From an uncultured Gammaproteobacteria bacterium (lineage in GTDB: Bacteria; Patescibacteriota; Microgenomatia; CAYXHB01; CAZYTL01), in NCBI GenBank assembly GCA_964650355.1, contig CAZYTL010000001.1:149552-213551 (forward strand): a stretch of DNA of 64,000 nt, in the 5' to 3' direction. The stretch's first letter is position 1; every line of letters begins with the position of its first letter. The notes beneath the pieces were generated by a model. That model did not search any database, was not told where the DNA came from, and saw only the letters and a list, made by a program, of their open reading frames with translations. The translations under genes were made by a program, and so were the position numbers. Below, piece by piece: positions 31,110-64,000 of the stretch.

Positions 31110-32123
31110 ATGGATAAGGATCTCTTCAAAAGGTTTGAAGCTTACCTGCTCCGTCGAGGCAATAAACCTCTGACCATCTATAAAAGAATAAGTTCAATCA
31201 AGAAACTTCTAAGGGAAGTCAGCCCCCTTACGCCTGAAAACCTCGAATTATACTTTGCCAATATGGCTAAAACCAGAAAAGGAACCACGGTAAACACCCT
31301 AATTGATACCATGAGAGTATTTGCGGACTTCCTCGGAAGGTATGAATTAAGAATAAAACATTTTCCTCAAGAGGATCCGATAAAAACAACCATGTCTGAT
31401 GAGGAAATTGAAAGATTCCTTGCTCTTCCCCCTCCATCCCGGACCAGCGAAAACCGAAAAATCGAATATTATCGCTGGACTAAATTCTTCAAAATTTGTG
31501 CCATGACTGGCGCACGTCCAGGAGAAATCGCTAATCTGACCGTTGATGGAGTTGACTTTGGCTTAAATGCTTTAATCGTAGACGGTAAAATGGGTAAAAG
31601 AAAAATCCCGATGGCAGAGAACATCAAAGATGATCTGAAAAATCTCATCGACAATGAAAAAGACGGGTTCCTTTTTTGGTCCTCAAAAGGTGGGAATGGG
31701 GGAGATGCCAAACAACAAAATCCGGTATTTACAGCCACGCAACGCCATTACTACTTTCACGGCCGACTCAAACGCCTGGGGATCAAACGCCGGGGATTAA
31801 CTCCGCACTCGCTCCGCCATAGTTTTATTACCCAATTACTGGAAGAAGATGTTAATTTATTTAAGGTTCAAAAAATCGTGGGACACAAACGGATTGAAAC
31901 CACAGCACAATATACCCACATGACATTAAAAGATGTGCAACAGGCTATCAAAAAACATCCAATTATTCGCAAACAAACGGATCCGTATTCAATCCTTCAA
32001 GCAATCAAAGAATTAATTCAGTCATTCGAACTGGAAAAAGACCAAAGATTTGAATATGTCATCACCGAAACCACCGATGAGTTAAGTCTCTCTGTTAAGG
32101 TTGTTAATAAGCCTAGCAGTTAA
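31110..32123 (+). CDS. int: tyrosine recombinase / phage integrase
   Basis: C-terminal catalytic region HSLRHSF...KIVGHKRIETTAQYTH (R..HxxR..Y). Confidence 0.9.
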   Translation: MDKDLFKRFEAYLLRRGNKPLTIYKRISSIKKLLREVSPLTPENLELYFANMAKTRKGTTVNTLIDTMRVFADFLGRYELRIKHFPQEDPIKTTMSDEEIERFLALPPPSRTSENRKIEYYRWTKFFKICAMTGARPGEIANLTVDGVDFGLNALIVDGKMGKRKIPMAENIKDDLKNLIDNEKDGFLFWSSKGGNGGDAKQQNPVFTATQRHYYFHGRLKRLGIKRRGLTPHSLRHSFITQLLEEDVNLFKVQKIVGHKRIETTAQYTHMTLKDVQQAIKKHPIIRKQTDPYSILQAIKELIQSFELEKDQRFEYVITETTDELSLSVKVVNKPSS

Positions 32124-32350
32124 AACAACCACAATTAGGGCAATAGAGATCTTCTTCGTTGGCCACCGACACCAGATACCAGATATAACTACAAAATTTA
32201 CAGACTATTTGCATCATAACAAATGTTTAACGTCCATCTCTACAATTCCTACAAAGGTAGGGATATGGCTTCCTCCGTCTAGTTACCTTTCCGCATTCCT
32301 GGCAAGGAACCATATAGGGCTTTCTCTTTTTGGAAAATCTTCACGGCATA

Positions 32351-32581
32351 TTATTTACCCAGTGCTTCCTCAGTCTTTTCTAATTCCTGAATTAATTTAC
32401 TGAGTTCGTTGCTAATTCCGTGTCTAACACCGATCAGCCCCAGACCTGCAATTAGCATCTCAGGCTCATTTTGAATGAGACCATAAGCAATAGCGCAGGC
32501 GCCGGCGATATAAGCTTTTTTGCCCCTTAACACTTCCCAGGCTAGTGAAATTAAATTTGTAACTGTAGACATATTTCTCAC
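32351..32581 (-). CDS. small membrane protein (holin-like candidate)
   Basis: 76 aa, two hydrophobic segments. Confidence 0.3.
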   Translation of the reverse strand: MRNMSTVTNLISLAWEVLRGKKAYIAGACAIAYGLIQNEPEMLIAGLGLIGVRHGISNELSKLIQELEKTEEALGK

Positions 32582-32604
32582 CTCCTTACTTCAGCTCCAA
32601 TAAA

Positions 32605-32802
32605 TCAATCTATTGATTCAAAGTAGTCTGGATTATTTTTGATAGCATCCTCATCAATGGATAGACTCAATGTCCAGTGAGAATTGATATCAATCAGACA
32701 TTCATAATAAGGAACATATCGCTGGACCTTCTCTGGTGCGTTAGTTAGAAATTCCCCCTTTCCGATTGCTTCTAGTAGTTTTTGGGTAGCTCGATATTTC
32801 AT
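32605..32802 (-). CDS. hypothetical small protein (start revised to MKYRATQ)
   Basis: AAGGAAG SD 6 nt before AUG at 32802; the ORF-track N-terminus overlaps the upstream small gene. Confidence 0.35.
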   Translation of the reverse strand: MKYRATQKLLEAIGKGEFLTNAPEKVQRYVPYYECLIDINSHWTLSLSIDEDAIKNNPDYFESID

Positions 32803-32803
32803 A

Positions 32804-32974
32804 TCATTTCTTCCTTTTGTTAAGTTTCGCTCCGTGTGCGCCGGCGTTCCTGGCATTAATTGACCTTAGAGCGTCTTCCCGATTCGTAGAACTGCCCACC
32901 ACTTCTCCGGTGTCTCTATTGACAATTTTGTAAGGGCGCTTATCTCCTTTTACATACTTAACGTCATAAGGCAT
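32804..32974 (-). CDS. small basic protein (55 aa), absent from ORF track
   Basis: strong SD AGGGGAGGUG 9 nt upstream of AUG at 32974; hand translation MPYDVKYVKGDKRPYKIVNRDTGEVVGSSTNREDALRSINARNAGAHGAKLNKRKK; stop overlaps the next start. Confidence 0.4.
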   Translation of the reverse strand: MPYDVKYVKGDKRPYKIVNRDTGEVVGSSTNREDALRSINARNAGAHGAKLNKRKK

Positions 32975-32975
32975 A

Positions 32976-34040
32976 CTATTCACCTCCCCTTACGAAAATT
33001 CGATCTTTTAACCATTGCCAAAAAGTCTTTTTTGGTTTATTTGTCGCCGGTTTCGGGTCTTCTGTGGGCTCTTCCGGAGTATTTTCTGAACTCAGGACCT
33101 CGTGTAATCGCCGTAGAAGCTCTTTTTCATCCGTTCCGGTATATGCAATCATTGAACCCACTTTTCCAATTAAATTGGCATACTGGGCTTTGAATTGTTT
33201 AGTTTTTTCCGTGTCGGTATCTAATTGATCCTCTTGAAGAATAAGTTTCTTAATCTCTCCTATTACTGTCTGGCTATTCTTCTCGCCGGCATCCGGCTGG
33301 GGTTTTAATAAGTCCCAAGCGTTATCAAGAAATTGCTGCCATTGTTTATTGGTGGTCCGCAATCCCTGATTAGTTATTTCTAGCGTCTTAAAATCTTTCT
33401 TCAAATTTTCCAAAGCCTTTTTATCTCCACTCCAATCTTTCTTCATGTCCTCAATCGTCCGCCTCAAAATTCCCAACTGATCCTGACATTTAGCCAACTC
33501 ACCAGTCGCCGGATCCGCGGCCTTGCGCTCTATCCAAAGCAAGGAATGGGGCTGATTCTTGTCCTGAAGAGTCTCCGCCCACGCCGATTCAAATTCCTCT
33601 TTAGTATAAAAGTGATGGTCACCATCCTGTCTTAAGGCATCTCTGAAATTCGGATCATTTACAAAATAACCATCTTCACGATAGCCAACCACCAAAAAGA
33701 AGTGCCCACCCTTAAATTTTTTATCCTGAGTGCTGTTAAGACTACCATAGTGAACCAAAACAATCGGAGGCAAATTCTGGTCAATCAACTCTCTGATTCT
33801 TTCCGGTGTAGCATTACGCTCCAGATGGGGAATATAGCCAAAAGATTTAATCGCCTTCTGTAATTCGTCCCAGCCAATTAAACCCTGATCTGCCTCAGTC
33901 TTCTCAAAAACTGTATCTGTCGTTAAACTCTCGCCATAATAATTGAGAATCATGGCAATACTGGCCGGTCCGCAGTCATTCTTTGTCTTACCCGCATCAT
34001 TGTCCCACTGTGACTTGTACTTAACTTCCAAATTTCTCAT
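32976..34040 (-). CDS. endolysin candidate: papain-like C39-type cysteine peptidase with C-terminal amphipathic tail
   Basis: CGPASIAMILNYYG (Cys) and GGHFFLVVGY (His) motifs; C-terminal KTFWQWLKDRIFV. Confidence 0.55.
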   Translation of the reverse strand: MRNLEVKYKSQWDNDAGKTKNDCGPASIAMILNYYGESLTTDTVFEKTEADQGLIGWDELQKAIKSFGYIPHLERNATPERIRELIDQNLPPIVLVHYGSLNSTQDKKFKGGHFFLVVGYREDGYFVNDPNFRDALRQDGDHHFYTKEEFESAWAETLQDKNQPHSLLWIERKAADPATGELAKCQDQLGILRRTIEDMKKDWSGDKKALENLKKDFKTLEITNQGLRTTNKQWQQFLDNAWDLLKPQPDAGEKNSQTVIGEIKKLILQEDQLDTDTEKTKQFKAQYANLIGKVGSMIAYTGTDEKELLRRLHEVLSSENTPEEPTEDPKPATNKPKKTFWQWLKDRIFVRGGE

Positions 34041-34042: not shown

Positions 34043-34303
34043 CTATTTGCTGTTAATACGGTCTTTTAGTAGGGTTTCTATTCCGGACAATCTTTGATCT
34101 ATTCCCTTTAGTGTCGCGATATATTCAGATTGAGTAACATAAGTTTCTCCTTTAGATTCCAGTGCTTTAATTCTTGTATCATTTACGGCAATATTTTGTG
34201 CCAGAGGAGCCAATCTAGCAGTAATCCAAACGCCAAGCACAAGAGTAGCCACAGTAAGAACCGAGATGAGGAGCTGTACTTTTTGTCTGAATTTATCATC
34301 CAT
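34043..34303 (-). CDS. holin-like single-TM protein
   Basis: 86 aa, one TM then coiled-coil; immediately upstream of the lysin. Confidence 0.35.
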   Translation of the reverse strand: MDDKFRQKVQLLISVLTVATLVLGVWITARLAPLAQNIAVNDTRIKALESKGETYVTQSEYIATLKGIDQRLSGIETLLKDRINSK

Positions 34304-34320: not shown

Positions 34321-34390
34321 AAAAAAAGCGCCGTGAATTACTTCACAACGCTTTAGTAATTATTATAGCAGAGGATCTGAAATCTATCAA
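34321..34390 (-). promoter_or_regulatory. promoter-hairpin cassette A (TTGATA-17-TATAAT, transcription start site (TSS) hairpin AAAGCGUUGUGAAGUAAUUCACGGCGCUUU + U7)
   Basis: -35 at 34385-34390, -10 at 34362-34367, hairpin 34321-34354; holin AUG 17 nt downstream. Confidence 0.55.
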
Positions 34391-37300
34391 AAATGAACGT
34401 CAACCGGATTCTTTTGTTTCAAGGTCCAGGCTGTATTTATCTTTGTTTTGGGTGTCCAATTTGTAGATACTTTTGCCTTATTATCCCAGGAAGTAGATAT
34501 TTTCGTTTTATTGATCCACAATCCCCTGAAAACAATGTCAGGGACCACAAAATTCACCACCACTGGCACCACACTGGCCGTCTCAACTTGTAAATAGGTG
34601 GCGGTGACGGCGGGAATAGAGAAAATTGTTATGGTAGGAGTAACGCTGGCTGTTATATGTCCGGTTGCCGCCGTTACATTTGGGACGGTAAAGGTGGTTA
34701 CTATTGGATTTAATGCCGCGGTTTCTACCTGGACATAAGTGGCCGTGGTCGCTGGAATCGAAAATGTACCTTGCACTGGAGAAGCGCTTGCAGTTTCTAC
34801 CTGACTATAACTCGCTGTAACGGAGGGGATTAAAAATGAGCTGAGGACAGGCGATGCCCCTGCGGTTTCTACCTGGACATAAGTGGCAGTAACAGAAGGT
34901 AAATTAAATATAGTTATTACTGGATTAACTGAAGCATTATAAAGACCCGAATGGGTAGCTGTGACTGAGGGGAGAGAAAAATTGACTGAAACGGCAGATA
35001 AACTAACAGTTTCTACTTGGATATAGGTGGCTGTAACTGAAGGATTGGAAAAATTAATTATTACCGGAGATACCGAAGCGCTTTCACCACTACTTGATGT
35101 TGCCGTAACAGTGGGTGTACTAAAATTAACTATTGATGGGGATAGGCTGGCGGTTTCTACCTGGACATAGGTGGCTGTAACTGAAGGATTGGAAAAGGTG
35201 GTTGTGACTGGCGAAAGATTGGCGGTTTCTACTTGGATATAAGTAGCTGTCATTGATGGATTAGAGAAAGTGACCGCTACCGGGGAAACACTTGCCGTTT
35301 CACCACTGCTTTGTGTCTCCTCACTTCCAACACTGTAAAATGTTGAAGGATTGCTTTGGTTATTATAAATTGTAGTGATTTGATTGCTAGATAAATATGA
35401 AGCAATCACCCGAATTTCATCTAATCCTCCATCATATCTATATGCAGTGGGTGGAGATACCCCCCAAGTCCGTTCTCCAATGTAAATAGAAGTCGTCGTA
35501 TTTGCATCTATAGAAGTAGGCCCGCCTGTTGTTTGATGAATTGTCCCATTATTTATTGAGGCCTCCAATAAACCATTTCCACCATCTCCATCTGCATCAT
35601 ACCGCCCCATCAAAAAGTCCCATTGACCCGTAGTGACGGAATCGCCCGTTGTTTGGACATTATAACCAGTTAATGACTTCCTAACTGCAAAGCGTAATTC
35701 TCCGGCTGGACTTTGACGAGTTACAAGCAAATACCCTCCGCCGCTTGCATCGAAAAAATCAAGAATATCATAGGATGTATTCTGTGGTAAGGTTTCATGT
35801 TTGGACCACATTATAATTGTCAAATCCCCGGTAATTTTAAGATGTCCCGCATTTGCGTTTGACAAAGAAAAATAATCTCCATTGTCATCTCGCTCTAAAT
35901 CCCTACCGTTCCCAACTTTTCCAGTTAAACTATCAATGGTATTGTTGTCAGAAAAATTTGCATTACCAGTAGAATCAATTAAATTATTTCCGCTAGATTC
36001 GTCACCATGAGCAACCAATTTGTAAATGCTAGGCCAAGTATTATCTCTCCCATAAGTGTCGCTGGTTCCATACCCAGTAGCATTTGGGTATCCATAATAA
36101 ACATAGAAATCAGTATCTACGCTTGAAGAAATTGAATCTATCAAAAGGTGAATCTGTCCTGTTTGTCCACTTGTATCAATCTTTACCAAATCATAGGCAC
36201 ATTCAGTTACCCCATCATCTTTGGTAATTCTTATATCATCACCGTCTGCTTGTACATGACTAAAAAAGGCCGACGGCAAATCACTTAAATCCACATAAAC
36301 AGGGTAGTCAGTATCGTCAGCGGCCACCTTTCCATGCTGAATAGTAACCTTAATCCTATATTGCCAATTACTGTTATACCACCCAACCCCGACGCTTGCT
36401 GTTACGCTTGGAAGCGTAAAGGTCACTCCCACCGGATTAACACTGGCAGTCTCCACTTCTTGATAAGTAGCAGTCACCACAGGGAGGCTAAATGTAGTTA
36501 CTACGGCAGCGACGGTAGCCGTGAAGTAAGCTAAGGCTGTAACCAAGGGCAAGGTAAAACTGGTAACCACCGGCGAGACTGAGGCCGAATCAACCTCGTT
36601 ATAGGTGGCCGTCACGCTAGGCACCGTGAAGTTTACCGCTACCGGACTAACACCGGCAGTCTCACCGCCACTTGCTGTATAGGTGGCGTAGATAGACATT
36701 GAATATCCGTCATAATTATTAGTTGGAACAAGGGGGTCTGGAAAAGTGTTGTAGGTTCCAGAATTATAACTTATCAACCTATTCCCAGAAGTAGTAGAAT
36801 CGTACCTCCCAAACCAACCAAGATCTTGATCGGACCACCCAGCTAATGTATATGGAGTACTGTCCACAACAGACGGCTTAGTTCCCGAATAAACTATGTC
36901 CCTCCAACCAGCCGAAGCATCAGTAAAATTATATTCATCTGTTTGTCCGTTAGTAATTTTATCGAAATCTGGATGCTGAGAATATAATTGACCAGTTACA
37001 TTTGCATTTGTCCCCGCATCAGTATATATAGTTAATTTATCAATGGTTCCATTTCCATCAGTGGGCGTATAATCATTTCCACTTCCACACCCTAAATTAT
37101 TTAAACTCCAATTTGAGCCTCCAATAGTCTGATATCCAAACGTAGGATCAACAACTACTGGATAAACCGCATTGTCTAGCCAAGATTTAGGAAGCAATAA
37201 TTTGTGTTCATTTGTATCAGGAAACCAATTCTGATCTGCCCAAGCTTCTTTTCCGTCAGCCGCAATCAACTTTACTCTTTTAGCATTGCCGATCTTGCCC

Positions 37301-38100
37301 GTTTTATAGTCCTGAAATTGTGTTTGCTGGATAATGATCTCACTTAATCTCTGCAATTCTTGCTCCAAGTCCCCGTCTTTCCATGTGTTAAATTTATCTG
37401 TTTGACCAGCCGTTCCCAATTTCACCATCACCTTTTCAGGGTGTCTTTTTAGAAGCTCATCAAAGATCTCTGCGTGTCTCTTCTGTTCCTGGCTCTGTGC
37501 TACCATTCCCCCCTTGCTCTCATGATAAAAGGCAATGGAGTTGACAATATCTTCCGGCCTATGTACCAAAACATTACCTTGATCGTCTTTTACGTCTGTT
37601 TCTGTGACAGTAATGTTCGTTTGAAATTCGTCACTCCAGCCGTCTTGAAATTCCTCCGTTAGTGGTGGCTGTTTATATCCCTTAATTGATTTATGTTGAG
37701 TGGTTAATACCAGTTCGCAATTATCGCCTACAACCTTTGTCTTTTTTTGAAGAGCAGCCAGAGTCTTAAAATGCAGCTCCATCTCATATCCACCGTCTTC
37801 ACCAGCGTCAGGCTTTTCAAACTGGTGCACTTCATAGTCGGGAGCAATGTATTTAATTTTCTCTCCATCAGTAATGACTTGGGCATTGGAATCCTCTGGC
37901 GCCCTTTGACTAAAATTGACCTCATTATCCCACCGACTTGATTTTCTCTGGGGCTTGAAGTCCGGTTGTTTGCTATCGCCAATTTCTACCTGAATCCGAT
38001 CCTTCGGATTACTTTTAACTTCATACAAGAAAGTATTATTCTCAATCCGGTACTTCCCGGTGATTTCTGCCGGTAATTTTTGAATATTTATGTCTGCCAT
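34387..38100 (-). CDS. tail fibre / receptor-binding protein (LamG/ConA-like domain, DUF2341-like region, tandem 24-aa repeats)
   Basis: 1237 aa; repeat unit SPVxxxFSxPSVTATYxQVETAxx repeated >12 times; LamG-like block; C-terminal KTKISTSWDNK repeats. Confidence 0.6.
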   Translation of the reverse strand: MADINIQKLPAEITGKYRIENNTFLYEVKSNPKDRIQVEIGDSKQPDFKPQRKSSRWDNEVNFSQRAPEDSNAQVITDGEKIKYIAPDYEVHQFEKPDAGEDGGYEMELHFKTLAALQKKTKVVGDNCELVLTTQHKSIKGYKQPPLTEEFQDGWSDEFQTNITVTETDVKDDQGNVLVHRPEDIVNSIAFYHESKGGMVAQSQEQKRHAEIFDELLKRHPEKVMVKLGTAGQTDKFNTWKDGDLEQELQRLSEIIIQQTQFQDYKTGKIGNAKRVKLIAADGKEAWADQNWFPDTNEHKLLLPKSWLDNAVYPVVVDPTFGYQTIGGSNWSLNNLGCGSGNDYTPTDGNGTIDKLTIYTDAGTNANVTGQLYSQHPDFDKITNGQTDEYNFTDASAGWRDIVYSGTKPSVVDSTPYTLAGWSDQDLGWFGRYDSTTSGNRLISYNSGTYNTFPDPLVPTNNYDGYSMSIYATYTASGGETAGVSPVAVNFTVPSVTATYNEVDSASVSPVVTSFTLPLVTALAYFTATVAAVVTTFSLPVVTATYQEVETASVNPVGVTFTLPSVTASVGVGWYNSNWQYRIKVTIQHGKVAADDTDYPVYVDLSDLPSAFFSHVQADGDDIRITKDDGVTECAYDLVKIDTSGQTGQIHLLIDSISSSVDTDFYVYYGYPNATGYGTSDTYGRDNTWPSIYKLVAHGDESSGNNLIDSTGNANFSDNNTIDSLTGKVGNGRDLERDDNGDYFSLSNANAGHLKITGDLTIIMWSKHETLPQNTSYDILDFFDASGGGYLLVTRQSPAGELRFAVRKSLTGYNVQTTGDSVTTGQWDFLMGRYDADGDGGNGLLEASINNGTIHQTTGGPTSIDANTTTSIYIGERTWGVSPPTAYRYDGGLDEIRVIASYLSSNQITTIYNNQSNPSTFYSVGSEETQSSGETASVSPVAVTFSNPSMTATYIQVETANLSPVTTTFSNPSVTATYVQVETASLSPSIVNFSTPTVTATSSSGESASVSPVIINFSNPSVTATYIQVETVSLSAVSVNFSLPSVTATHSGLYNASVNPVITIFNLPSVTATYVQVETAGASPVLSSFLIPSVTASYSQVETASASPVQGTFSIPATTATYVQVETAALNPIVTTFTVPNVTAATGHITASVTPTITIFSIPAVTATYLQVETASVVPVVVNFVVPDIVFRGLWINKTKISTSWDNKAKVSTNWTPKTKINTAWTLKQKNPVDVHF
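34560..35300 (-). repeat. 72-bp tandem repeat array (~10 copies) inside the tail-fibre gene
   Basis: anchor word TTTCTAC recurs at 34722, 34794, 34866, 35010, 35154, 35226 (period 72); second shorter array ~36400-36700. Confidence 0.7.
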
Positions 38101-38101: not shown

Positions 38102-38596
38102 TTAACTGCTTAAAATATCGTGACTGCCCTTGTTAGATTCATCCAGCTGGACATAAACTTCCCTTTTAACCTTTTGATCATTTTCCTCCACAACGGCGGT
38201 TAATAAGGCGTTCTTTTGGATTGGATTAATCTGGAAGTTGAGTACTCCCACCAACTGCCCACTATTAACCAACTCATCAATATAGCTCTTTAATGCCGGA
38301 GTGATTGTGTCTACGGGTTTATCTATTGGGGGTGGCGTTTGATCATGCCAGTAGGCAACCTCCTGTTCGGTTCCCTCATTTTCTACATAAAAGCTGATAT
38401 TCTTCCTGATTAGGGTGTCATTCTTTTTTTCATATACACCAATTGTGTACCAGTTGATATTTTCAGCCGATCTTATTTCCTCTCGGATTGCCCTCTTTGG
38501 CGTGTCCTCAGCAAGCAATAACGCCTTTTTACCCTCTGGCGTAGTAACCGTGTGGAACTTAGTCATTAAATAATTAAATAATTCTGCTTTAGTCAT
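38102..38596 (-). CDS. hypothetical protein upstream of tail fibre (start revised to MTKAELF)
   Basis: SD GAAAGGGGGUGA before AUG at 38596; the ORF-track N-terminal 31 aa are translated terminator+SD. Confidence 0.4.
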   Translation of the reverse strand: MTKAELFNYLMTKFHTVTTPEGKKALLLAEDTPKRAIREEIRSAENINWYTIGVYEKKNDTLIRKNISFYVENEGTEQEVAYWHDQTPPPIDKPVDTITPALKSYIDELVNSGQLVGVLNFQINPIQKNALLTAVVEENDQKVKREVYVQLDESNKGSHDILSS

Positions 38597-38618
38597 ATTT
38601 TCACCCCCTTTCTCTACT

Positions 38619-38641
38619 AAAAAACCAGCCCTATTGGCTGG
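38619..38641 (-). terminator. intrinsic terminator
   Basis: minus RNA CCAGCC-AAUAG-GGCUGG followed by U6. Confidence 0.55.
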
Positions 38642-38733
38642 TATTAACCTTAACCTATCCGCCTCGTCTCGCCGGTCAAGACAGGTCAACCGATAGGCAT
38701 TTATTTTAATTATTAACTTTATGCGCTTGTGCC

Positions 38734-39177
38734 CTAGGCGCTTGCCCCCTGAATAATCCCTTCAGCATCCCAAGGGACATCAATCTGGGTAGCTGTAGCA
38801 GGAATATCTGCGGTGAAGTCCATGAAGGCAATTGGGATGGAGTCTGTGTCATTCGTTACGTGCTTATAAACTAAGGCACCCTGAATATCTCGTGTCGCGT
38901 TACCACTTAATCCAGTAAATGAAGCATTGTCGGCATCAAATTCAGCCCGATCATTGGCATCATCAATATTAACAGCCTCGTTTGCCAAAGCAACTCTAGC
39001 ATATCCGGTAGCGTCACACTCATCTAGGGTGGTAAAACCATTCATTAGATCCACGTCTGGCTCGGTGTCGCAGGTAGTATTAGTCATCACCAAAGCCACC
39101 CGAATATCGTCGGCGTTCATGTCCAAATCGCCGCTCATCCATTTTCCGATTGCATTTTGATAAACTACACTCGCCAT
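38734..39177 (-). CDS. acidic hypothetical virion protein
   Basis: 147 aa, Asp-rich. Confidence 0.3.
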   Translation of the reverse strand: MASVVYQNAIGKWMSGDLDMNADDIRVALVMTNTTCDTEPDVDLMNGFTTLDECDATGYARVALANEAVNIDDANDRAEFDADNASFTGLSGNATRDIQGALVYKHVTNDTDSIPIAFMDFTADIPATATQIDVPWDAEGIIQGASA

Positions 39178-39180
39178 AAA

Positions 39181-55878: not shown

Positions 55879-55880
55879 AA

Positions 55881-56170: not shown

Positions 56171-57622
56171 TTAACGCTCAACAAATACTCCCAATAAAGT
56201 AATCTTCCGGATCAAACAATTATTAGTAGTATTTCCATTTGTCCAATCGACCACCACCCTGACATCCTCAACCGGACCTAAATCAATAGAGCGGAAAACA
56301 TGCCTGGTTTTATTTGTCCCGCTTATCTGCAAGGCGGTTGCAGACTTAGCACCCTGATTTCCCTCCAAAGTAATATCAGCTCTGGCACTGGCTCCTAATG
56401 CTTTTGTCTGTACAATTACATCTGTAATCTTCCCCAATATTCTTCCCTCTGTTAAATCTATGAGGATACTCTTCCAATTACATGCAGTTTCCAGCCCCCC
56501 AAATCGTGCCAGGCGGTGACTTGTGCTTCCATTTGAGCTAGCAATCATTGGAAGGTCAAAAGGCGCCCCGATCCCTCCCACAAGGTTATATCCACCAAGT
56601 CTTAACCGACTGATCTGAATCGGTAACTGCTCCACTGGTGCCCCACAGTCCCAAAGATATCCGCCGGAGTAAAACAAAATGGTATTTTTATATAAAGTTT
56701 TTTGTCTATGGTCAGGTAATGATCCCTTAAAATATCGTAAAGGTTTAAGTTGTCTGCCTGAAATCCAACCAATCGCAAAGATTGTGGCAGCTAAATCATC
56801 TGAAACATAAGCCACATATACAATTCCGTTTAAAACATACAAAAATCCGATCTTCTGGGCTCCCACCCCTACTTCATCAGATAAAACATTGGAAAGAATC
56901 GATCCATCATAAATATATATTCGACTCTCCCGCCCTGCTACGTTGTTAACGGCAATCCACCAGACATTGGCATGAAACACCACATCTACCACTTCGTTTC
57001 CATCTCCGAAATTTAATTTTTGCACATCAAGTATTGCATCTTCCTCAATATAAACTCCCAAATACTGGCCATTACCAAAAACCAGAATACCCTTTTCTAT
57101 CTCATGGACCGCCGCTGGATGGGGTGCCTTTTCCAATGCCTGGTCCGTGGTCGATCCCCAGTCTGGATCAATCGCTTCGGTGTCCAATGGCATTGCTGCG
57201 ATCTCGCCGGCACTTTCAGTGTTGTAAAAAACAAATAAATTATTCCCTAGTCTGACAATGCTTTCCCCCTCGGCCATATTGGTAATTGTCTGTGGCCAAC
57301 TGGGAGTGCCACCGTTTTTCACCGTGTAATAATTTTCAATCTTAAATAATTTAGTAGTCCCTACTGCGAATGTGATTCCCGTGGCTGTTGGCTTATCCAA
57401 AATGAACCGGATCAACTGATCAACGACTCCGGACTCATTACCGTTTGTCAAGTCTAGTGAGCCAGGGCTTTGACCCAAAAATCCCGGAGTGCCGATTACA
57501 TCAGCCAACATCTCCGAAGCCTGCCCCCTGTCACCGATGAATGTTTGGCTATCAACGTGGGCTAGAGGGGAAAGTCCTTTATGAAAATCCGCAATCTCAA
57601 TCTTAAAATCTATATCTGCCAT
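56171..57622 (-). CDS. beta-rich structural protein (tail/receptor-binding candidate)
   Basis: 483 aa with repeated beta-strand-like segments. Confidence 0.3.
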   Translation of the reverse strand: MADIDFKIEIADFHKGLSPLAHVDSQTFIGDRGQASEMLADVIGTPGFLGQSPGSLDLTNGNESGVVDQLIRFILDKPTATGITFAVGTTKLFKIENYYTVKNGGTPSWPQTITNMAEGESIVRLGNNLFVFYNTESAGEIAAMPLDTEAIDPDWGSTTDQALEKAPHPAAVHEIEKGILVFGNGQYLGVYIEEDAILDVQKLNFGDGNEVVDVVFHANVWWIAVNNVAGRESRIYIYDGSILSNVLSDEVGVGAQKIGFLYVLNGIVYVAYVSDDLAATIFAIGWISGRQLKPLRYFKGSLPDHRQKTLYKNTILFYSGGYLWDCGAPVEQLPIQISRLRLGGYNLVGGIGAPFDLPMIASSNGSTSHRLARFGGLETACNWKSILIDLTEGRILGKITDVIVQTKALGASARADITLEGNQGAKSATALQISGTNKTRHVFRSIDLGPVEDVRVVVDWTNGNTTNNCLIRKITLLGVFVER

Positions 57623-57632: not shown

Positions 57633-59411
57633 CTAAGTCGGGGCAGGCAACTGGGCCTGTACTATCTCTGGATTCTTATTCGACAACGCTCCGGCTTGCT
57701 CTCTTTGGGGCAGTTGGGTCTCCGCAGGCGCCGTTTCTCTCCTGGGAGGGATAGGGATTCCCCTCGATCTGTAAATCTGGTCCAGGATCCAACCAATCCT
57801 CGCCGGATCCTTTTCTAATCCGATTAGATTTATCAAATCCTGTATCTGGTCCTGTATGTCGCTATTTTCACCAGTAATCGTTATAAACAACCTTGGCAAT
57901 ACATTTTTCCAGATTTCCTTAGAATTCTTAATTACTGGGTCTATCCGCCGCAATTCATCCAGCTTCTCCGCCTTAATTGTCTTAGCTATTTCTAGAGTAT
58001 GAGGACCGATTTTAACTAGATTTTGTGCATACCAACTCTCCGCCATAATTTCCCTGAATTGGTCTAAAATATCAGTGTCACCCACCAATCTGAAAATATC
58101 TTCACCCCTTAAATACTTCACCAACTCCGGCAATACCCACTCTCTGAATACCCGCTTATAAGGCAATGCCAGCTTTTGTCTTAACAACGCAAATAATCGT
58201 CCGGCGTTCTGATCAATCAATGCTCCCAACCTAAATGGCGTTCCGGAGGGCAATGATTCACCCCGGACCACCTCAAAAGAATTAGACAGTCTGTCCGCGT
58301 CGTTAATCAATCGGTTCCAGTCCGCTATCAGCTGATCCATCGCCTGCATCCTCACATCCAGCTGAGCCAGGTCCTCAGTGATCACCACGTCGCCATTATC
58401 TAAATCGGCTCGGATATTCTGCAACACAGTGGGATCCTTACTTCTGAAAATCACCTTGGAAGCCCATTCCAGCCCTGTAGCCAACTGATTCCCGATTTCA
58501 TTCGCTCTGATCTGGTGGTCAAATAGCAACTCATACATTCCTACCCGCCAAAATCTACCCTCGTAGCGTCCCCGGTGGGCATAGATATAATAATCAGACA
58601 TTTTTCCATCTAACTTCTCGGCGAACAACGTATACTTCTCCCCCGCCCCACTCTTCCTCAAACCCGCCAGGATTACCTTTGCTAAAAAGTGTTTATTTTC
58701 ATCTCCCCTCCCTTCCTCATTCACCTCATTAAACTCCTTTTCCGAAACTTCCCCGGTAAACTCAAAAATCTCATAAACCTTACCCGTCTTTTCAATGGGT
58801 GTGGTTTTATCAGCAGCCTTAAAAAACTTATTCCCTAATTCTTTAATTACCTCATCCACATGATTCCAATCCGACATAGATTTCAGCTCCGAAGCAATCA
58901 TCTCATGTCTTTCAATTAGGTCGGTGTTGTCAATCGACCTGGCTGTTTGATTAGTTATGTAAGCGTTCAGTGAATCTACCATCTCATAGCCGCCATCAAT
59001 CTTCTTAAACCCCACGTTTCCAGAAGTCACAAATTCCTCTACCGCCGCTTTTAATTTTTCATCTTCACCGTTTTCTGCCATCCATTCCTTCAGTTTGGCG
59101 TTAGAAATAAACACCGCTGGAAAATCCTTTTGAGGATTACGCGAAAAAATCAAGATGTGCTTGGTATCAAACCTTAAATTCTTCACCTCGCTGTCTGCCC
59201 GGTTAGAGATAATGTCAAAATAATAGTTGTAAGATAAATCCGCATTAATCTTGGTCCCCGACAAGTCACGATTCTTAAACCTATTTATCCTGTTAATTAG
59301 CTTATATTGACTAAAAAACACCCTCTCAGACAATTCAATATTCCGAGAGGTATAGTTCTCAATCTCGGATTCGATTCTGGAATATAATGTGGATTGGTTA
59401 GTCTTTGGCAT
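57633..59411 (-). CDS. large virion protein (possible portal)
   Basis: 592 aa acidic with Pro/Gln-rich C-terminus; call rests on size and context only. Confidence 0.25.
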   Translation of the reverse strand: MPKTNQSTLYSRIESEIENYTSRNIELSERVFFSQYKLINRINRFKNRDLSGTKINADLSYNYYFDIISNRADSEVKNLRFDTKHILIFSRNPQKDFPAVFISNAKLKEWMAENGEDEKLKAAVEEFVTSGNVGFKKIDGGYEMVDSLNAYITNQTARSIDNTDLIERHEMIASELKSMSDWNHVDEVIKELGNKFFKAADKTTPIEKTGKVYEIFEFTGEVSEKEFNEVNEEGRGDENKHFLAKVILAGLRKSGAGEKYTLFAEKLDGKMSDYYIYAHRGRYEGRFWRVGMYELLFDHQIRANEIGNQLATGLEWASKVIFRSKDPTVLQNIRADLDNGDVVITEDLAQLDVRMQAMDQLIADWNRLINDADRLSNSFEVVRGESLPSGTPFRLGALIDQNAGRLFALLRQKLALPYKRVFREWVLPELVKYLRGEDIFRLVGDTDILDQFREIMAESWYAQNLVKIGPHTLEIAKTIKAEKLDELRRIDPVIKNSKEIWKNVLPRLFITITGENSDIQDQIQDLINLIGLEKDPARIGWILDQIYRSRGIPIPPRRETAPAETQLPQREQAGALSNKNPEIVQAQLPAPT

Positions 59412-59437: not shown

Positions 59438-60214
59438 TTAAAGACCATATCTTTTAATGGATTTTCTTTTTAATTTCAGCCTGGGTTTAACATCCATTGC
59501 CCGCCTCTGAAAATGCTCTACCATTGACTTTCTCATTGCTTCCTTTTGTATCCTCAATTCAGCAGATTTTTTGGTCATCCCGTTTGCAATTGCATAATCT
59601 AACGCTGCCCCCAGGGATAAAAACCTATGATACAGAGAGCTAAATCCAGGCTTCTTTGTCGTATCTGATGGTATGAAGTAGTTACCTCCCCGCTGAATTG
59701 AAATCTCTACTCCGGCAGAGTAACCGTAGTCAGGCATGGGGACCGGGAAAATAGCGTTACCTTCCCTGTAAAAACTATCCGGAGATCCGGTTGACTTCAA
59801 TTCGCTATCGCTAAATTCACGCTTCAATTTGGGGGTTAAAATCACAAAATCGCCTTGGCTATTTTTCATCCGCAACTCATGGATTACCAATGCCGAATCG
59901 GGAATTGAATAATGATCCTGATTGCCTACCAGGGTCGCGATAGCGCATGGAAGGTCTGTGTTATTGAGATCATCCCACTTCCAGTTAGGATCCGCCTTAA
60001 ACATTTCTGCAATAGCCTCATCCCAGACGTTATTTACATTCCTCGTACGGTCATCCAAAGAGTACTCGGAGTTAAATATAGCACTATTGCCAAACAATAA
60101 GAAGTCAATGTCAGCAACCAATGAAATAGATTTATCGGATGGATTATATTGCACAGTAATTACCCTCCTTTCTTTCGATATAAAAATTATCGTATTCTTT
60201 ATGGCACGCAGCAC
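59438..60214 (-). CDS. hypothetical protein with basic C-terminal tail
   Basis: 258 aa; C-terminal RLKLKRKSIKRYGL. Confidence 0.25.
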   Translation of the reverse strand: MLRAIKNTIIFISKERRVITVQYNPSDKSISLVADIDFLLFGNSAIFNSEYSLDDRTRNVNNVWDEAIAEMFKADPNWKWDDLNNTDLPCAIATLVGNQDHYSIPDSALVIHELRMKNSQGDFVILTPKLKREFSDSELKSTGSPDSFYREGNAIFPVPMPDYGYSAGVEISIQRGGNYFIPSDTTKKPGFSSLYHRFLSLGAALDYAIANGMTKKSAELRIQKEAMRKSMVEHFQRRAMDVKPRLKLKRKSIKRYGL

Positions 60215-60593
60215 ATAATCTTAACCAGTCGCTCAAATCTCTTTTATACTGTCCACTCTTGTTAGCCCAATGAATATTATGTCCCTTTAACTCTGAACAA
60301 CCACATCGCTCACAGGTGGTGGGTTTTCCTAAAATTGCCCCAATCCACATATGAACAGCTCTATATTTAGCCTTAATTCCAAGCCATCTATTGGTGTTTT
60401 TCCCTCTTAATCCCAATTTCGCATTTCTCATTTTAAGCTTCGTTTCGTCTGAATGTTTTTTCCCGTAAAAACTATTTCTTTCGCCTACCCGAAGTTTGGC
60501 GGCACAAGATCTGGAACACGTTTTTCTCTTTCCTCCCAATGATGGATGAATATCAAAGTCTTTTTTACAAAATTTACATTGAAGTCTAACCAT
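60144..60593 (-). CDS. HNH homing-type endonuclease with NUMOD3 motif (start revised to MVRLQCKFC)
   Basis: GKKHSDETKLKM (NUMOD3), C-x2-C...HNIHW...CAACH HNH core; the ORF-track first AUG lies inside the -10 box. Confidence 0.7.
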   Translation of the reverse strand: MVRLQCKFCKKDFDIHPSLGGKRKTCSRSCAAKLRVGERNSFYGKKHSDETKLKMRNAKLGLRGKNTNRWLGIKAKYRAVHMWIGAILGKPTTCERCGCSELKGHNIHWANKSGQYKRDLSDWLRLCAACHKEYDNFYIERKEGNYCAI

Positions 60594-60636
60594 AAGCGTT
60601 GTGGAATTTTGCACAACGCTTTGATTCATTATAACA
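60594..60636 (-). promoter_or_regulatory. promoter-hairpin cassette upstream of HNH (TGTTATAAT; perfect 10-bp palindrome abutting AUG)
   Basis: AAGCGTTGTG-GAATTTTG-CACAACGCTT at 60594-60622; -10 at 60628-60636. Confidence 0.5.
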
Positions 60637-60768: not shown

Positions 60769-61017
60769 CTAAATTCGTTCATAAAAAATGTCTACGGTGA
60801 AGAGTTTTAGTAAACTCACCACCATTGCTTTCCTTCTTTTTTCCCCTCCACATTGACACTTTCTTTCTATTATTTGTTCTCCCACCTGTCGTTTTCCTCC
60901 TGTATCCTCAATAAAAATAGGATTGTGGATATGTGTCATGTCACAATCATTTAGGTCACAAAATATCCCCGGGTAAATTATTTTTTCTATTTTCTTTCGT
61001 AATTTAGTGTCTGTCAT
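60769..61017 (-). CDS. hypothetical Cys-containing small protein
   Basis: the ORF-track N-terminus overlaps the upstream gene; internal M28 start likelier. Confidence 0.25.
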   Translation of the reverse strand: MTDTKLRKKIEKIIYPGIFCDLNDCDMTHIHNPIFIEDTGGKRQVGEQIIERKCQCGGEKRRKAMVVSLLKLFTVDIFYERI

Positions 61018-61408
61018 GGTGTTTGGTTGGTAGAGTGGATAAAAGTTTTTCGTACTCAGCATTGACCGCTTTTTCAAACGTGTCGTAATATCTATCAACT
61101 GTTAGATATTTCTTCCAATCATCATGCTGTAAGTTGGTTTCAAACCCTTTTGGCGGTTCATAGAAAAGAAAACCTATACCAGCTCGGCAATAGTGAATAT
61201 CGTAAATATTTTTTGCTTCTTCAATTTTATGCAATTTTTCTAAGGTGTCCTCCCTCACCCTCTCCCCGTAGTCGGTGAAGGCTTGGGCAAGTAACTTCGA
61301 TATTTTTTCAGGATGCCAATACAAATTGCCATCATCCCCAATATCAGCTCCTGTTTTCATTATTTGCTGGACTATCTCCTCAATGGCGGGGTCGGTGGGT
61401 TTAGTCAT
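61004..61408 (-). CDS. hypothetical protein
   Basis: 134 aa. Confidence 0.3.
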   Translation of the reverse strand: MTKPTDPAIEEIVQQIMKTGADIGDDGNLYWHPEKISKLLAQAFTDYGERVREDTLEKLHKIEEAKNIYDIHYCRAGIGFLFYEPPKGFETNLQHDDWKKYLTVDRYYDTFEKAVNAEYEKLLSTLPTKHHDRH

Positions 61409-61632
61409 GGTGTTTGGTTGGGTTGGGCGGATGGTGGATTAAATCCTTTTATAATATATCCTTCGTCAAAATACTTAGGATCTAACACCATTGGTTGCTC
61501 TAGGTCAAAGTTTGTATCGTCTTTATCGCCACTAGCAAAACCATGCCAATATTTTTTACCTGTAACATCGTCAACCGCAAGCTCCCAACGGGCATCTTGT
61601 TCTCCTACCTCCATAGTTTTTTGGTTACTCAT
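61405..61632 (-). CDS. hypothetical protein
   Basis: 75 aa. Confidence 0.25.
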   Translation of the reverse strand: MSNQKTMEVGEQDARWELAVDDVTGKKYWHGFASGDKDDTNFDLEQPMVLDPKYFDEGYIIKGFNPPSAQPNQTP

Positions 61633-61940
61633 GATTCGTTCGCAATTTTAAGTAACACATCGGCGTGACAAGGTTGATCTAATGGACACCAGCAAGCGAG
61701 ATTTTTTCCCTTTAACTGTAATTTGACTAAGGCACGTTCATCCAACCCAATTCTGTCTATTAATTCTTTATAAAAAACAACAGCTCGTTCACGAGTAGAT
61801 GGGCATCTATTATCATCAGATAATTCACCCACTTTATAAGAATTGCCCCACTTGGTAGGTCTACCCACATAAACAGTATTCGGTGGCATCCGCCATCCTT
61901 TAGTTCGTTTTCTCTGGATTCTAACCGGTTGGGAGTTCAT
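61629..61940 (-). CDS. DUF4326-family protein
   Basis: KGWRMPPNTVYVGRPTKWGN pattern typical of DUF4326. Confidence 0.45.
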   Translation of the reverse strand: MNSQPVRIQRKRTKGWRMPPNTVYVGRPTKWGNSYKVGELSDDNRCPSTRERAVVFYKELIDRIGLDERALVKLQLKGKNLACWCPLDQPCHADVLLKIANES

Positions 61941-62217
61941 AAAATTTAGCCGATTTAATAAACATCTCGGCGTGCTTTTGATCTAAACTAATCATCCTGG
62001 TTAATGTCTTTGTAATTCCTGCGGCTAACTGCATGGCTTCATCTACCCTCATATGCACATCCCAGCCAAATCCGGGCTTAGAGCTGGTAAATTTAACCCT
62101 AATTATGTCTTCTTTAACTCGATGTTTATTATTGTGGATTATTCCGACCTGACAATAATTACCTTTACTCATTACACTCTGCCAATGCCAGATAGTATGC
62201 TGTTTTTTGCTTTTCAT
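61921..62217 (-). CDS. hypothetical protein
   Basis: 98 aa. Confidence 0.25.
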   Translation of the reverse strand: MKSKKQHTIWHWQSVMSKGNYCQVGIIHNNKHRVKEDIIRVKFTSSKPGFGWDVHMRVDEAMQLAAGITKTLTRMISLDQKHAEMFIKSAKFYELPTG

Positions 62218-62345
62218 AGTGGCTTGATAGTCACCTGCACGTCACAAGGCATTTCTACCGTAGATTTAGCCTTCCTGGTTTGAAACAGGACCAAAGTAAT
62301 TAAACAATAAGTGATTAAAATGAGAATAATAAAATTTTTAGTCAT
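62214..62345 (-). CDS. 43-aa single-TM peptide, absent from ORF track
   Basis: hand translation MTKNFIILILITYCLITLVLFQTRKAKSTVEMPCDVQVTIKPL; start 2 nt after the upstream stop, stop overlaps the downstream AUG (AUGA). Confidence 0.3.
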   Translation of the reverse strand: MTKNFIILILITYCLITLVLFQTRKAKSTVEMPCDVQVTIKPL

Positions 62346-62347
62346 AA

Positions 62348-62695
62348 TTAAAGGGCTCTAATTCTCTCTAAGACATCTTCAGGACTATGCCCATCCCATG
62401 GGGGGGCTTTCTTTAGCTCCGGAACATGACATCGATCCCAGTATTCAATTGGCAGGTGATAGGTTATTTGCTCTCCTTCAAAAAATCCATAACCCAACAA
62501 AAACCAATTTTTCCATTCGCTTCCGTCAGAATGTTTTCTAGACTTCCACGCTGTTAGACTCAGTCTATTAATTAGGGCTATCCACAATTCGGTCCTACGC
62601 TCATAGAGTTCACCGAAAGTATAGAGCCCGTCACTTATCTGATTCGTGTCAGGTTTTAATTTTCTAATTAACCAATTAATCAGTTTTTCCTTCAT
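62348..62695 (-). CDS. hypothetical protein
   Basis: 115 aa. Confidence 0.25.
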   Translation of the reverse strand: MKEKLINWLIRKLKPDTNQISDGLYTFGELYERRTELWIALINRLSLTAWKSRKHSDGSEWKNWFLLGYGFFEGEQITYHLPIEYWDRCHVPELKKAPPWDGHSPEDVLERIRAL

Positions 62696-62826
62696 ACTTA
62701 AAAAATTGACTGGCTTGGCTCTCCAGTCTTGGTTGCCCCTCTTCGCGACTTCCCTTTTGGGTTTAGCCTAACCGGTGAGTGTGTATTTGCGGCTATACTT
62801 TCGCCATCTGCCAACCACCACCCATG

Positions 62827-63984
62827 CTACAAAAGATCCGGATTAATAAAAATCATTCCAGATTCGGTCTTTATTAAATTGTTTCGCTTCATGGTGTTGA
62901 TATACTCGTTAAAACTACCCCCCTTTGCGCTCATTCCTACCGCAAGAGCGATTTGAGATCTTGTGTGTTTCATGGGATAGGTATTAGCAAGCAGCCGGAG
63001 AATATCCGGAGCCGATCCCCGCAATTTGCTCGCCCACATCTCAATCTGACTATTGGGTATAACCTCCACGCCGTTCTGTATCTCCTCAAATTCCTCATCG
63101 CCGATTATTGCCGCTATCTTTTCTAGTTTCTTAGATAGCCGGCCAATCTCCTTATCCCTGGCCCTTAGTTGCTCTTCGTAGTCGTTCTCCAGTGATTTGA
63201 GCTGCTCATCAACCTGCTTTTGACTATAGCCTTTTTCAGTCCTTTGAGGAGTTGAGACAGGGACCGGACCATCATCGGATCCGGTTACATTACTGATAAA
63301 ATCATCAATAAAAGCTTGGATATCCATATCTTTATAGAGGCGGCCCGCCTGCCCTAGTCGTGGCATCCCAAATTTCATGTCTATCTTTTCTCTATCGGGA
63401 TGGAAAGTTTCGCGCTCCCGGATCCTTATTCTCTCAAAGGTCTTCAGAAATTCCGGTGACCAGAGCCATCCCTCGCCCGTGGGAAGAGAGGGGAGTGACT
63501 GCATAAATTCATTGAAGTCATCTTCGGCGGCGTGATACTCAACCCACTCCTTTAGAGCCTTGCGGTCCTGTGGTGCCGTATTTCTAAAGGCCAACAAAGT
63601 ATCAATCTGTGTCAAAACGTCTTTGTTGATCGTTGCGGCTCTTTGATTAATTAAAGTCACCCCCAGCCCCCGATTCCTTCCCATGACCACCAATGCTTCA
63701 ATTGCCGCAAAAACCTTACCCATGGCACCAAACACCCTCTGGGGAACGAATTCATGAGCTTCTTCAATAAAAACATGTCGGGGCCGGTCATTAATTCTCA
63801 ATAACTCTTCCGCCAAATCAGCCATAAGCTCTCTCTGGCCTACTTTCGGCATCCCAAAAGTGGAAATGATACAAGAGACATTCTCTTTTACGATGGCTTC
63901 AGCTATCTGCTTTCCCATCTTCCGGTCAATAGGAACGTCGGCGTGGTCCAATCCAAATACCACAATAGGCAGCCCCTTATCCAT
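62827..63984 (-). CDS. HerA/FtsK-superfamily (DUF87-like) ATPase, N-terminus beyond window
   Basis: Walker B FIEEAHEF followed by GRNRGLGVTLINQRAATI; no Walker A in visible part, so probably truncated by the window edge. Confidence 0.5.
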   Translation of the reverse strand: MDKGLPIVVFGLDHADVPIDRKMGKQIAEAIVKENVSCIISTFGMPKVGQRELMADLAEELLRINDRPRHVFIEEAHEFVPQRVFGAMGKVFAAIEALVVMGRNRGLGVTLINQRAATINKDVLTQIDTLLAFRNTAPQDRKALKEWVEYHAAEDDFNEFMQSLPSLPTGEGWLWSPEFLKTFERIRIRERETFHPDREKIDMKFGMPRLGQAGRLYKDMDIQAFIDDFISNVTGSDDGPVPVSTPQRTEKGYSQKQVDEQLKSLENDYEEQLRARDKEIGRLSKKLEKIAAIIGDEEFEEIQNGVEVIPNSQIEMWASKLRGSAPDILRLLANTYPMKHTRSQIALAVGMSAKGGSFNEYINTMKRNNLIKTESGMIFINPDLL

Positions 63985-64000
63985 GCCATTCTTGGCGAAC

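Follow-up and report, generated by a model that had tools for sequence, protein, structure and literature searches.

Is a tailed phage genome in which no portal gene follows the gene for the large terminase subunit (TerL) incomplete, a composite of two elements, or rearranged? The question is raised by a 64,000-nt stretch of DNA (contig CAZYTL010000001.1, positions 149,552 to 213,551; hereafter the window), in which 1–31 kb hold cellular genes and 31.0–64.0 kb would represent the left ~33 kb of one integrated temperate tailed phage. A preliminary description of the window, made from its letters and a list of open reading frames (ORFs), had recorded a prophage with a single coding strand, no portal after TerL and tail-like genes ahead of the packaging module, and had left the choice between an unusual gene order and two juxtaposed elements undecided. 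Our analysis makes it very likely that the region holds one temperate tailed phage whose rearranged gene order is conserved within its clade, and which is probably short-tailed and integrated in a probable Patescibacteria host. It differs from ordinary phages in the position of its genes and not in their function.

The portal gene

As the preliminary description had stated, no portal follows TerL; the next ORFs encode proteins of 94, 70 and 156 aa, after which come the scaffold-like and capsid genes. The protein that it had called 'portal-like' is encoded upstream of the terminase genes, at 57633–59411 on the minus strand, and is 592 aa long (p592). It matched neither Pfam nor PHROG, and the profile of its family gave chance-level matches only against PDB sequences. 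We found 466 homologues, all unannotated and many of them on contigs of 37–44 kb. The position of these homologues was informative. In MW202577, a complete, circular genome of 39.6 kb, the p592 homologue (47.5% identity) stands directly after TerL and before the scaffold and capsid genes, and the same adjacency of TerL and p592 homologue was present in three further related loci (L013, L015 and L018). Across a survey of ~100 viral loci, a p592 homologue was located <5 kb upstream of the capsid gene in 32.

A search with the predicted fold of p592 agreed with this placement. The AlphaFold model had a predicted local distance difference test score (pLDDT) of 57.8, and the top 40 Foldseek matches in the PDB were all podovirus portals or portal–tail complexes, with E-values down to 1.5e-6. 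The portal structures matched included those of DEV, N4, Pan3, GP4, T7, P22 and crAss001, and the named matches in BFVD were almost all labelled 'portal protein'. With template modelling (TM) scores of ~0.2, the fold evidence would by itself be insufficient for a portal call; synteny and fold search together make the identification of the 592-aa protein as the portal secure, and the canonical-order relatives and podovirus-portal matches thus bear out the earlier label. The preliminary description had named a portal homologue elsewhere as something that would speak against its reading, and that homologue is the very gene it had flagged: the portal has moved and is not missing. Since it is found upstream, the phage lacks nothing; a gene has changed place.

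Gene order across the clade: one element or two

Read in the direction of transcription, the end of the early region comes first, with RusA (just outside the window) and then genes for a HerA-like ATPase, WDGH, DUF4326 and an HNH-like endonuclease. A portal-vertex block would come next, consisting of adaptor, portal, nozzle-like protein, small tail proteins, a 493-aa protein (p493) and a 2102-aa protein, and then an insertion hot-spot (island and tRNA) ahead of the small terminase subunit (TerS) and TerL. Three small genes, scaffold, capsid and head completion would follow, and the series would end with fibre, holin and endolysin. The ORF coordinates of the earlier list were all reproduced and, as had been claimed, the phage genes after the integrase lie on the minus strand (33 ORFs, 91.5% of 32351–64000). 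Plus-strand genes are limited to the integrase and two overlapping ORFs at 45885–46875; the latter, together with the tRNA, occupy the one large coding gap of the phage region (45625–46877).

Two further prophages and at least 24 IMG/VR contigs share with the window the series adaptor, portal, nozzle, ejection proteins, TerS, TerL, scaffold and capsid. Six reassembled IMG/VR contigs (27–40 kb) carry adaptor, portal, nozzle-like protein, a 95-aa protein (p95), p493, a variable stretch of 4–8 kb, the 94- and 156-aa proteins (p94 and p156), scaffold and capsid; where examined, the variable stretch consists of a large protein followed by TerS and TerL. A reassembled relative of 37,771 bp had no exact terminal repeat, and its completeness is unproven. 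In 22 of the ~100 surveyed loci, TerL and the capsid gene downstream of it are <4 kb apart and enclose no portal gene, and four loci (L088, L095, L105 and L115) show p493 and/or the nozzle-like 483-aa protein (p483), followed by TerL, p94 and capsid. The two prophages that share the window's order are located on NCBI contigs of 144 kb and 129 kb. In that on the 144-kb contig, the early genes end at an integrase of its own; a 38.3-kb contig that starts with this integrase carries a near-identical copy of the prophage. Judged by sequence comparison, the window's order is a trait conserved in a clade delimited by at least 63% portal and at least 62% capsid identity; the module order that had been described as unusual is genuinely non-canonical.

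Three orders could be distinguished among the relatives. In the canonical order A, the genes run TerS, TerL, portal, scaffold, capsid, adaptor, nozzle-like protein, p493 and large protein. In order B, seen in L136 (7466–21191), TerS and TerL are followed by scaffold, capsid, adaptor, a 1229-aa protein, a 220-aa protein and the portal (53% identical to that of the window). In order C, that of the window's clade, adaptor, portal, nozzle-like protein, p493 and large protein precede TerS, TerL, scaffold and capsid, so that all unique-vertex components are contiguous. Because circular permutation cannot turn A into C, at least two rearrangements are needed, and the portal gene seems to be positionally labile in this phage group. 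The TerL family found at the fixed slot also differs: it is Terminase_3 (with 3C) in the window (43959–45624), L021 and L079 (18467–20171), and T4-type Terminase_6N in L002 (17738–19583), L082 (21360 onwards) and L088. Unrelated TerL families in the same slot point to cassette exchange at a fixed position.

It is possible, if not quite probable, that these phages form a widespread, unclassified temperate short-tailed lineage, anchored in Patescibacteria, in which the portal has moved at least twice, its places being after TerL (canonical), after adaptor and nozzle (L136) and, upstream of the terminase, between adaptor and nozzle (the window's clade), and the terminase cassette has been swapped. 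If true, this would make them a group at family level whose morphogenetic module is unusually plastic, and a useful natural test of the role of gene order in head assembly. The three gene orders and the terminase swapping would serve as an example of modular rearrangement, not of a new mechanism. On a practical level, an annotation pipeline that looks for the portal next to TerL, or finds portals through Pfam or PHROG models, would score this prophage wrongly, and its many relatives with it. Integration beside cellular genes would further give a direct host link, probably to Patescibacteria, for a large metagenomic phage clade without a cultured member, some members of which are now binned into archaeal or proteobacterial metagenome-assembled genomes (MAGs). 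We consider the clade-wide relocation of the portal, a portal family undetected by standard profile libraries and the probable host anchor to be of modest note.

Within the GenBank phage collection, the window phage has a single relative, MW202577.1 (uncultured 'Caudoviricetes sp.' ctPCi537, Manatee Spring), which is similar in genome size and shares the portal (47.5%), capsid (52%), scaffold, adaptor, a p493 homologue and the C-terminal half of TerL, all deposited as hypothetical. It differs in its canonical order (TerS, TerL, portal, scaffold, capsid, adaptor, a 752-aa protein, p493 homologue, large protein), in having a Zeta_toxin domain instead of SLT (lytic transglycosylase) in the large protein, and in carrying its early genes on the opposite strand. 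Among cultured phages, the order is TerS, TerL, portal, scaffold and coat in P22, and portal, scaffold, capsid, adaptor, nozzle, internal proteins, fibre and terminase in T7. Both differ from the adaptor, portal, nozzle, ejection proteins, terminase, scaffold, capsid and fibre of the window. The window phage resembles P22, Sf6 and T7 in its podovirus-type portal fold matches and in a propeller like those of P22 gp10, Sf6 gp8 and T7 gp12; it further has in common with P22 integration by a tyrosine integrase, and with T7 the SLT domain of its large late-region protein, which matches gp16-type internal virion proteins. Its portal, however, has no detectable sequence similarity to those of the three phages, and its SLT domain is located at the C-terminus of the 2102-aa protein, which also bears an HExxH motif.

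That the element is integrated is indicated by its left end. A tyrosine integrase (31110–32123, plus strand; PF00589, E 4e-25; phrog_1 integrase, E 3e-42) adjoins a host ABC-transporter operon, at a distance of 128 bp from the ATPase gene; the interval between these two genes (30983–31109) is the presumed attL region. With this recombinase at the host junction, and with terminase (by Pfam and PHROG), portal (by synteny and fold search) and capsid (by PHROG major-head families) all present together, the element is assigned to Caudoviricetes prophages on its gene content, which supports the earlier claim of a prophage. No relatives of the integrase were found in IMG/VR. A direct repeat of the 30983–31110 region, which had been suggested as a marker of the far end, did not appear: 30941–31130 contains no att repeat of at least 12 bp recurring in the window or in the 1.16 kb beyond it, a rightward extension taken from a 7.7-kb Logan contig (L030). 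One might suspect that the adjacency of host and phage DNA is a chimera of assembly or binning and that the phage is really free, either lytic or extrachromosomal, given that mis-binned relatives are frequent in MAGs of unrelated organisms (Micrarchaeota, Methanogenium, Enterobacteriaceae) and that a single junction is visible. We consider this very improbable, since two assemblies, the 295-kb NCBI contig and a separate Logan one of SRR14802573 (L085), both show host transporter, integrase and lysis genes joined in this way, the integrase is located exactly at the junction, GC content runs on unbroken from host into phage DNA, and the related phages on the 144-kb and 129-kb contigs are also integrated, one with its own integrase at the junction.

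The other rival, that two elements are juxtaposed, would place a portal/tail element (46.9–64 kb) beside a terminase/capsid/fibre/lysis element (31–45.6 kb), joined at the tRNA and island. The proposed joint is not arbitrary: 45625–46877 is the only break in strand and coding and has the lowest GC, a tRNA is a classic integration target, and terminator-like hairpins lie on both sides of the island. However, the two blocks are complementary, with one portal, one capsid gene, one terminase, one integrase and no core gene duplicated, and the same order across the junction recurs in the at least 24 viral contigs and two prophages mentioned above, most of them with neither tRNA nor island. For this reason, the tRNA (45712–45786) was also rejected as an integration site between two elements. 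Relatives with the canonical order hold the same gene set in one genome, no integrase or transposase is encoded at the junction, and the left-junction sequence is not repeated within the window. On the strength of the colinear order in many independent contigs, the complementary blocks and the lack of a recombinase at the island and of an att-like repeat of the left junction in the window, we reject the two-element reading as exceedingly improbable and retain that of a single rearranged prophage.

The tail and the 2102-aa protein

Directly upstream of the portal gene lies that of a 258-aa protein (59438–60214, minus strand), a head-to-tail adaptor of the SU10 type. PF24175, a family based on the adaptor of SU10, matches the window protein marginally, below the curated cut-off (E 1.3e-4; 22.9 bits vs 27). 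The 238-aa homologues in L079–L084 matched with E ≤ 1e-5, and homologues with a clear PF24175 match are 52–61% identical to the window protein. The tail of Escherichia phage SU10 (Kuravirus) comprises portal, adaptor, nozzle and needle (PMC9509320); in the window, too, the adaptor gene adjoins those of the portal and a nozzle-like protein. The latter, p483 (56171–57622, minus strand), was assigned as a nozzle or tail-hub-like protein from its AlphaFold2 model (pLDDT 73.4), a beta-propeller with a beta-sandwich whose top Foldseek matches included P22 gp10, the T7 gp12 nozzle, Sf6 gp8 and other podovirus tail hubs, interspersed with glycoside-hydrolase propellers. Compared with PDB sequences, the family profiles of adaptor and p483 gave chance-level matches only. 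Some p483 homologues have an inserted Laminin_G_3 domain, which might fit an exposed tail protein.

Three small tail-associated ORFs (95, 104 and 275 aa; 54734–56168, minus strand) follow p483; they are patchily conserved in relatives and have no profile match. A similar motif, xxxYG-K-S/V-K/R-PG-D-V/I, appears by eye at the start of the 104-aa protein and of each half of the 275-aa protein (54734–55878, minus strand), and suggests a small repeated tail-protein domain without a profile match. The next gene encodes p493 (53198–54679, minus strand), a virion protein by conservation and position. It is 45–55% identical in close relatives and 29–43% in canonical-order relatives, and its slot between the nozzle-like gene and the large variable protein is constant; from this position, it is probably an internal or ejection protein. 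A C-terminal motif of ~30 residues (IQTW...NG.ATIS.VPE.IRNEVL.AL) occurs twice in p493, at residues ~385–412 and 466–491, and matches two short PHROGs without known function (phrog_1382 and phrog_5056).

The 2102-aa protein (46878–53186, minus strand) had been described as tape-measure-like. Its SLT domain at residues 1971–2071 (E 1e-16) was the only match at E ≤ 1 when 600-residue pieces were searched against Pfam, and its profile matched lysozyme-type proteins in the PDB within the SLT domain only. PHROG labels matched by the protein were 'internal virion protein with endolysin domain' and 'lytic tail protein', and tblastn returned T7-like internal virion protein D and gp16 homologues. In addition, it contains an HExxH motif at residue 778 and two hydrophobic segments. 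Proteins in the same slot of close relatives (portals 63–76% identical) are 722, 799 and 1203 aa long and were not detected by tblastn with the 2102-aa protein. The 1203-aa counterpart in L082 (16928–20539) carries LPD38, a 'large polyvalent protein-associated domain', and aligns weakly with residues 1204–1519 of the window protein (E 2e-5; 322-residue alignment). In MW202577 (L078), the counterpart at 27283–29919 is 878 aa long and has a Zeta_toxin domain. The slot after the p493 homologue thus appears to gather conflict-type effector domains (Zeta_toxin, LPD38).

We infer from these sequence features that the 2102-aa protein would be a packaged and ejected multi-domain protein of the internal-virion or 'polyvalent' type. 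Polyvalent proteins comprise lysozyme fusions and zincin-like peptidases and are injected with the DNA (Iyer et al. 2017, PMC5512222). The window protein is likewise very large, is encoded in the late region and combines unrelated modules (HExxH motif, SLT); it differs in that SLT is its one profile-defined domain, LPD38 and Zeta_toxin belonging to its counterparts only. A role as tape measure was rejected, as counterpart length is not kept, the SLT domain is like that of T7 gp16-type internal virion proteins, and the neighbours are the wrong ones: the gene stands between that of p493 and the island with TerS behind it, and not in a set of tail-tube, chaperone and distal-tail genes.

Indeed, no ORF in the phage region matched a tail-tube, sheath, tape-measure or chaperone profile, ~15 ORFs having no match of any kind. 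Together with the SU10-type adaptor and the nozzle-like p483, this points with moderate confidence to a short-tailed, podovirus-like virion. A long-tailed, siphovirus-like prophage, in which the 2102-aa protein would be the tape measure and the 483-, 275- and 493-aa proteins would form the distal tail or baseplate, could account for the great length of the former, and tape measures often end in lysozyme or SLT domains; several small ORFs could conceal a tail-tube gene, and the sole GenBank relative is labelled 'Siphoviridae sp.'. Tape-measure length is, however, expected to be stable among close relatives, so the observed lengths of 722, 799 and 1203 aa, in proteins of undetectable or very weak similarity, argue against a tape measure, as do the conflict-type domains LPD38 and Zeta toxin in the same slot and the T7 gp16-like SLT. 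The adaptor belongs to a podovirus family, and the fold matches of the portal are all podoviral. Moreover, tape measures follow a rule of ~0.15 nm of tail per residue, by which 2102 aa would correspond to a tail of ~300 nm, unusual for relatives with contigs of 37–44 kb. We therefore regard the long-tailed alternative as improbable and prefer the short-tailed virion.

Several points nevertheless weigh against the overall picture of a single, short-tailed prophage in a Patescibacteria host. The portal model is of low confidence and its matches rest on local 3Di similarity, even though they agree with the synteny. Matches of p483 to GH43 and GH32 propellers were about as good as those to tail hubs, with TM-scores of ~0.3, and the HExxH of the 2102-aa protein is a bare motif in a protein that matched no metallopeptidase profile. 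Among many unannotated small ORFs, the absence of tail-tube and tape-measure matches is absence of evidence, and MW202577 was deposited as 'Siphoviridae sp.', presumably an automated label. The right end, attR and any repressor lie beyond the window, so that integration is seen at one junction and completeness is unproven. Finally, the host call rests on one marker protein and on MAG names, some of which are plainly mis-binned.

With a complete and unduplicated parts list, the virion should assemble and deliver its DNA like a phage of the P22, T7 or SU10 type. The integrase would mediate integration, and expression would run from right to left, from the early genes into one long late region. 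A procapsid would assemble on the portal with scaffold and capsid protein, and TerS and TerL would package the DNA, after which adaptor, nozzle and fibre would attach. On infection, the SLT-bearing large protein would be ejected to breach the peptidoglycan; at the end of the cycle, the holin-like protein and the C39-type endolysin would bring about lysis. We infer that the prophage is viable, and these features suggest ordinary tailed-phage biology, with nothing that points to a departure from it.

Other phage genes, hairpin cassettes and host

The packaging genes have clear profile matches. TerS (45133–45624, minus strand) matched PF16677 (GP3_package, E 3e-16) and phrog_606 (E 2e-24), and TerL (43959–45182, minus strand), of the Terminase_3 type, matched PF04466 and PF17288 (Terminase_3 and 3C) as well as phrog_2 (E 6e-32), and is 45% identical to a Flavobacterium phage FpV-type TerL. 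The three small ORFs between TerL and scaffold (94, 70 and 156 aa; 42748–43923, minus strand) have no profile match and are kept in place in L002, L004–L006, L021 and L026. A highly charged 233-aa protein (41951–42652, minus strand) is, by position and composition, the putative scaffold; wherever a related locus yielded both genes, its homologue directly precedes the capsid gene. The major capsid protein (40731–41888, minus strand) matched the 'major head protein' families phrog_267 (E 2e-15) and phrog_283 (E 4e-10), and is 52% identical to the product of the positional capsid gene of MW202577. Between capsid and fibre, five small ORFs (195, 147, 163, 117 and 147 aa; 38102–40607, minus strand) probably encode head-completion or decoration proteins, judging by their position only. 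The 147-aa protein beside the capsid gene is 66–67% identical in L020 and L021, and the product of 38734–39177 matched phrog_644, whose function is not known.

The late region ends with fibre and lysis genes, all on the minus strand. A 1237-aa protein (34387–38100) with Laminin_G_3 (E 5e-15) and DUF2341 domains is the predicted tail fibre or receptor-binding protein, for which no homologue was found in the reassembled close relatives. It is followed by an 86-aa protein (34043–34303) with one hydrophobic segment (residues 7–34) and no profile match, encoded directly upstream of the endolysin; hydropathy and position make it a putative holin. The endolysin (32976–34040) has an N-terminal C39-like cysteine peptidase domain (PF13529, E 9e-17; phrog_10051, E 2e-13). 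Two small ORFs (76 and 83 aa; 32351–32856) close the region; a PHROG search of these small ORFs gave no match.

At the opposite end, beyond the adaptor, a NUMOD3/HNH-like endonuclease is encoded at 60144–60629 on the minus strand (PF07460, E 1e-6; weak matches to phrog_314 and phrog_8446). The end of the early region (60769–64000, minus strand) comprises small ORFs, DUF4326 (PF14216), WDGH (PF25311) and the HerA-like ATPase (PF05872). The ORF of the latter (62827–64000, minus strand) continues past the window; in the overlapping Logan contig L030, it is 451 aa long and is preceded by RusA. This HerA/FtsK-like ATPase also matched phrog_2666, labelled 'terminase large subunit' (E 7e-14); the label may mislead, or the protein may be a further ATPase that translocates DNA, next to RusA. 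We considered and rejected it as a second packaging enzyme: it adjoins RusA in the early region, and bona fide TerS and TerL are present. In a close relative, the early region (L002, 5523–7558) holds genes for an N6/N4 DNA methylase and, on the other strand, a BstXI-type restriction endonuclease (E 4e-91); from their sequences, the two look like a phage-borne restriction-modification system.

The plus-strand island (45885–46875) resembles a moron-like insertion. Its two overlapping ORFs have hydrophobic segments and no significant Pfam match, and with a GC content of 0.355 it is the lowest-GC stretch of the element. At the same position, L082 has an opposite-strand ORF of 206 aa; the slot between the large protein and TerS attracts insertions, namely the island and tRNA here and this ORF in L082. 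The tRNA (45712–45786, minus strand) was identified by ARAGORN and Rfam (RF00005, 54.2 bits) as a phage tRNA-Asp with anticodon AUC. Its loop reads G-U-A-U-C-G-A; an Rfam 'gathering' run over the whole region did not include the tRNA, and a focused run did. A related phage contig (L004, 321–393) carries a tRNA-Thr with anticodon AGU. An A at position 34 is unusual for these bacterial tRNAs.

Three promoter–hairpin cassettes were detected on the minus strand, at 45675–45641, 39705–39671 and 34354–34320, each with a further ~45 nt upstream. Every cassette consists of a promoter-like site (-35 and extended -10), 7–14 nt and a hairpin of 13–15 bp, AAAGCGTTGTGAnnTAnTTCACGGCGCTTTTTTT, with a T-run. 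By chance, no such cassette would be expected. The hairpins have predicted energies of -16 to -17 kcal/mol (z about -4.4), and the cassettes end 0–20 nt before the start codons of TerS, the 163-aa gene and the holin-like gene. Among the fetched loci, the pattern was found elsewhere only in L085, which is the same genome. The cassettes probably mark late transcription units or regulatory sites; they could be promoter-proximal terminators, acting in antitermination control, or 5′ stabilising stem-loops.

The cellular genes at 1–31 kb encode NusA, glycosyltransferases and others, among which a translation-factor GTPase (as IF-2) and a glycogen-synthase-like protein were identified by eye. NusA has no close named relative, the named ones being 56–62% identical. 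Most of them belong to the Patescibacteria group, the best coming from Chisholmbacteria and Patescibacteria (56–58%), and a few carry labels that are evidently mis-binned. On these relatives, the host is probably a bacterium of the Patescibacteria (candidate phyla radiation, CPR), as had been guessed, and appears closer to the Microgenomates-type lineage Chisholmbacteria. Prophages are known from Patescibacteria MAGs, with a mean of 43.7 kb in Paceibacteria and others cited in Saccharibacteria, Gracilibacteria and Absconditabacteria (PMC12455944). They are likewise integrated tailed phages of ~40 kb in genomes of ultra-small bacteria; we liken them to the window phage by description, and the host here is nearer to Chisholmbacteria. 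Relatives of the phage genes and of NusA were also found in MAGs named Micrarchaeota, Methanogenium, Bathyarchaeia, Enterobacteriaceae and others (loci L031–L037; proteins P0135, P0183 and P0299), probably as mis-binned phage or CPR contigs. In the host region itself, 16353–17667 (minus strand) and 22830–25620 appear by eye to encode proteins that are secreted or anchored and that have linkers rich in Pro and Thr, along with cohesin/dockerin-like or Ig-like segments.

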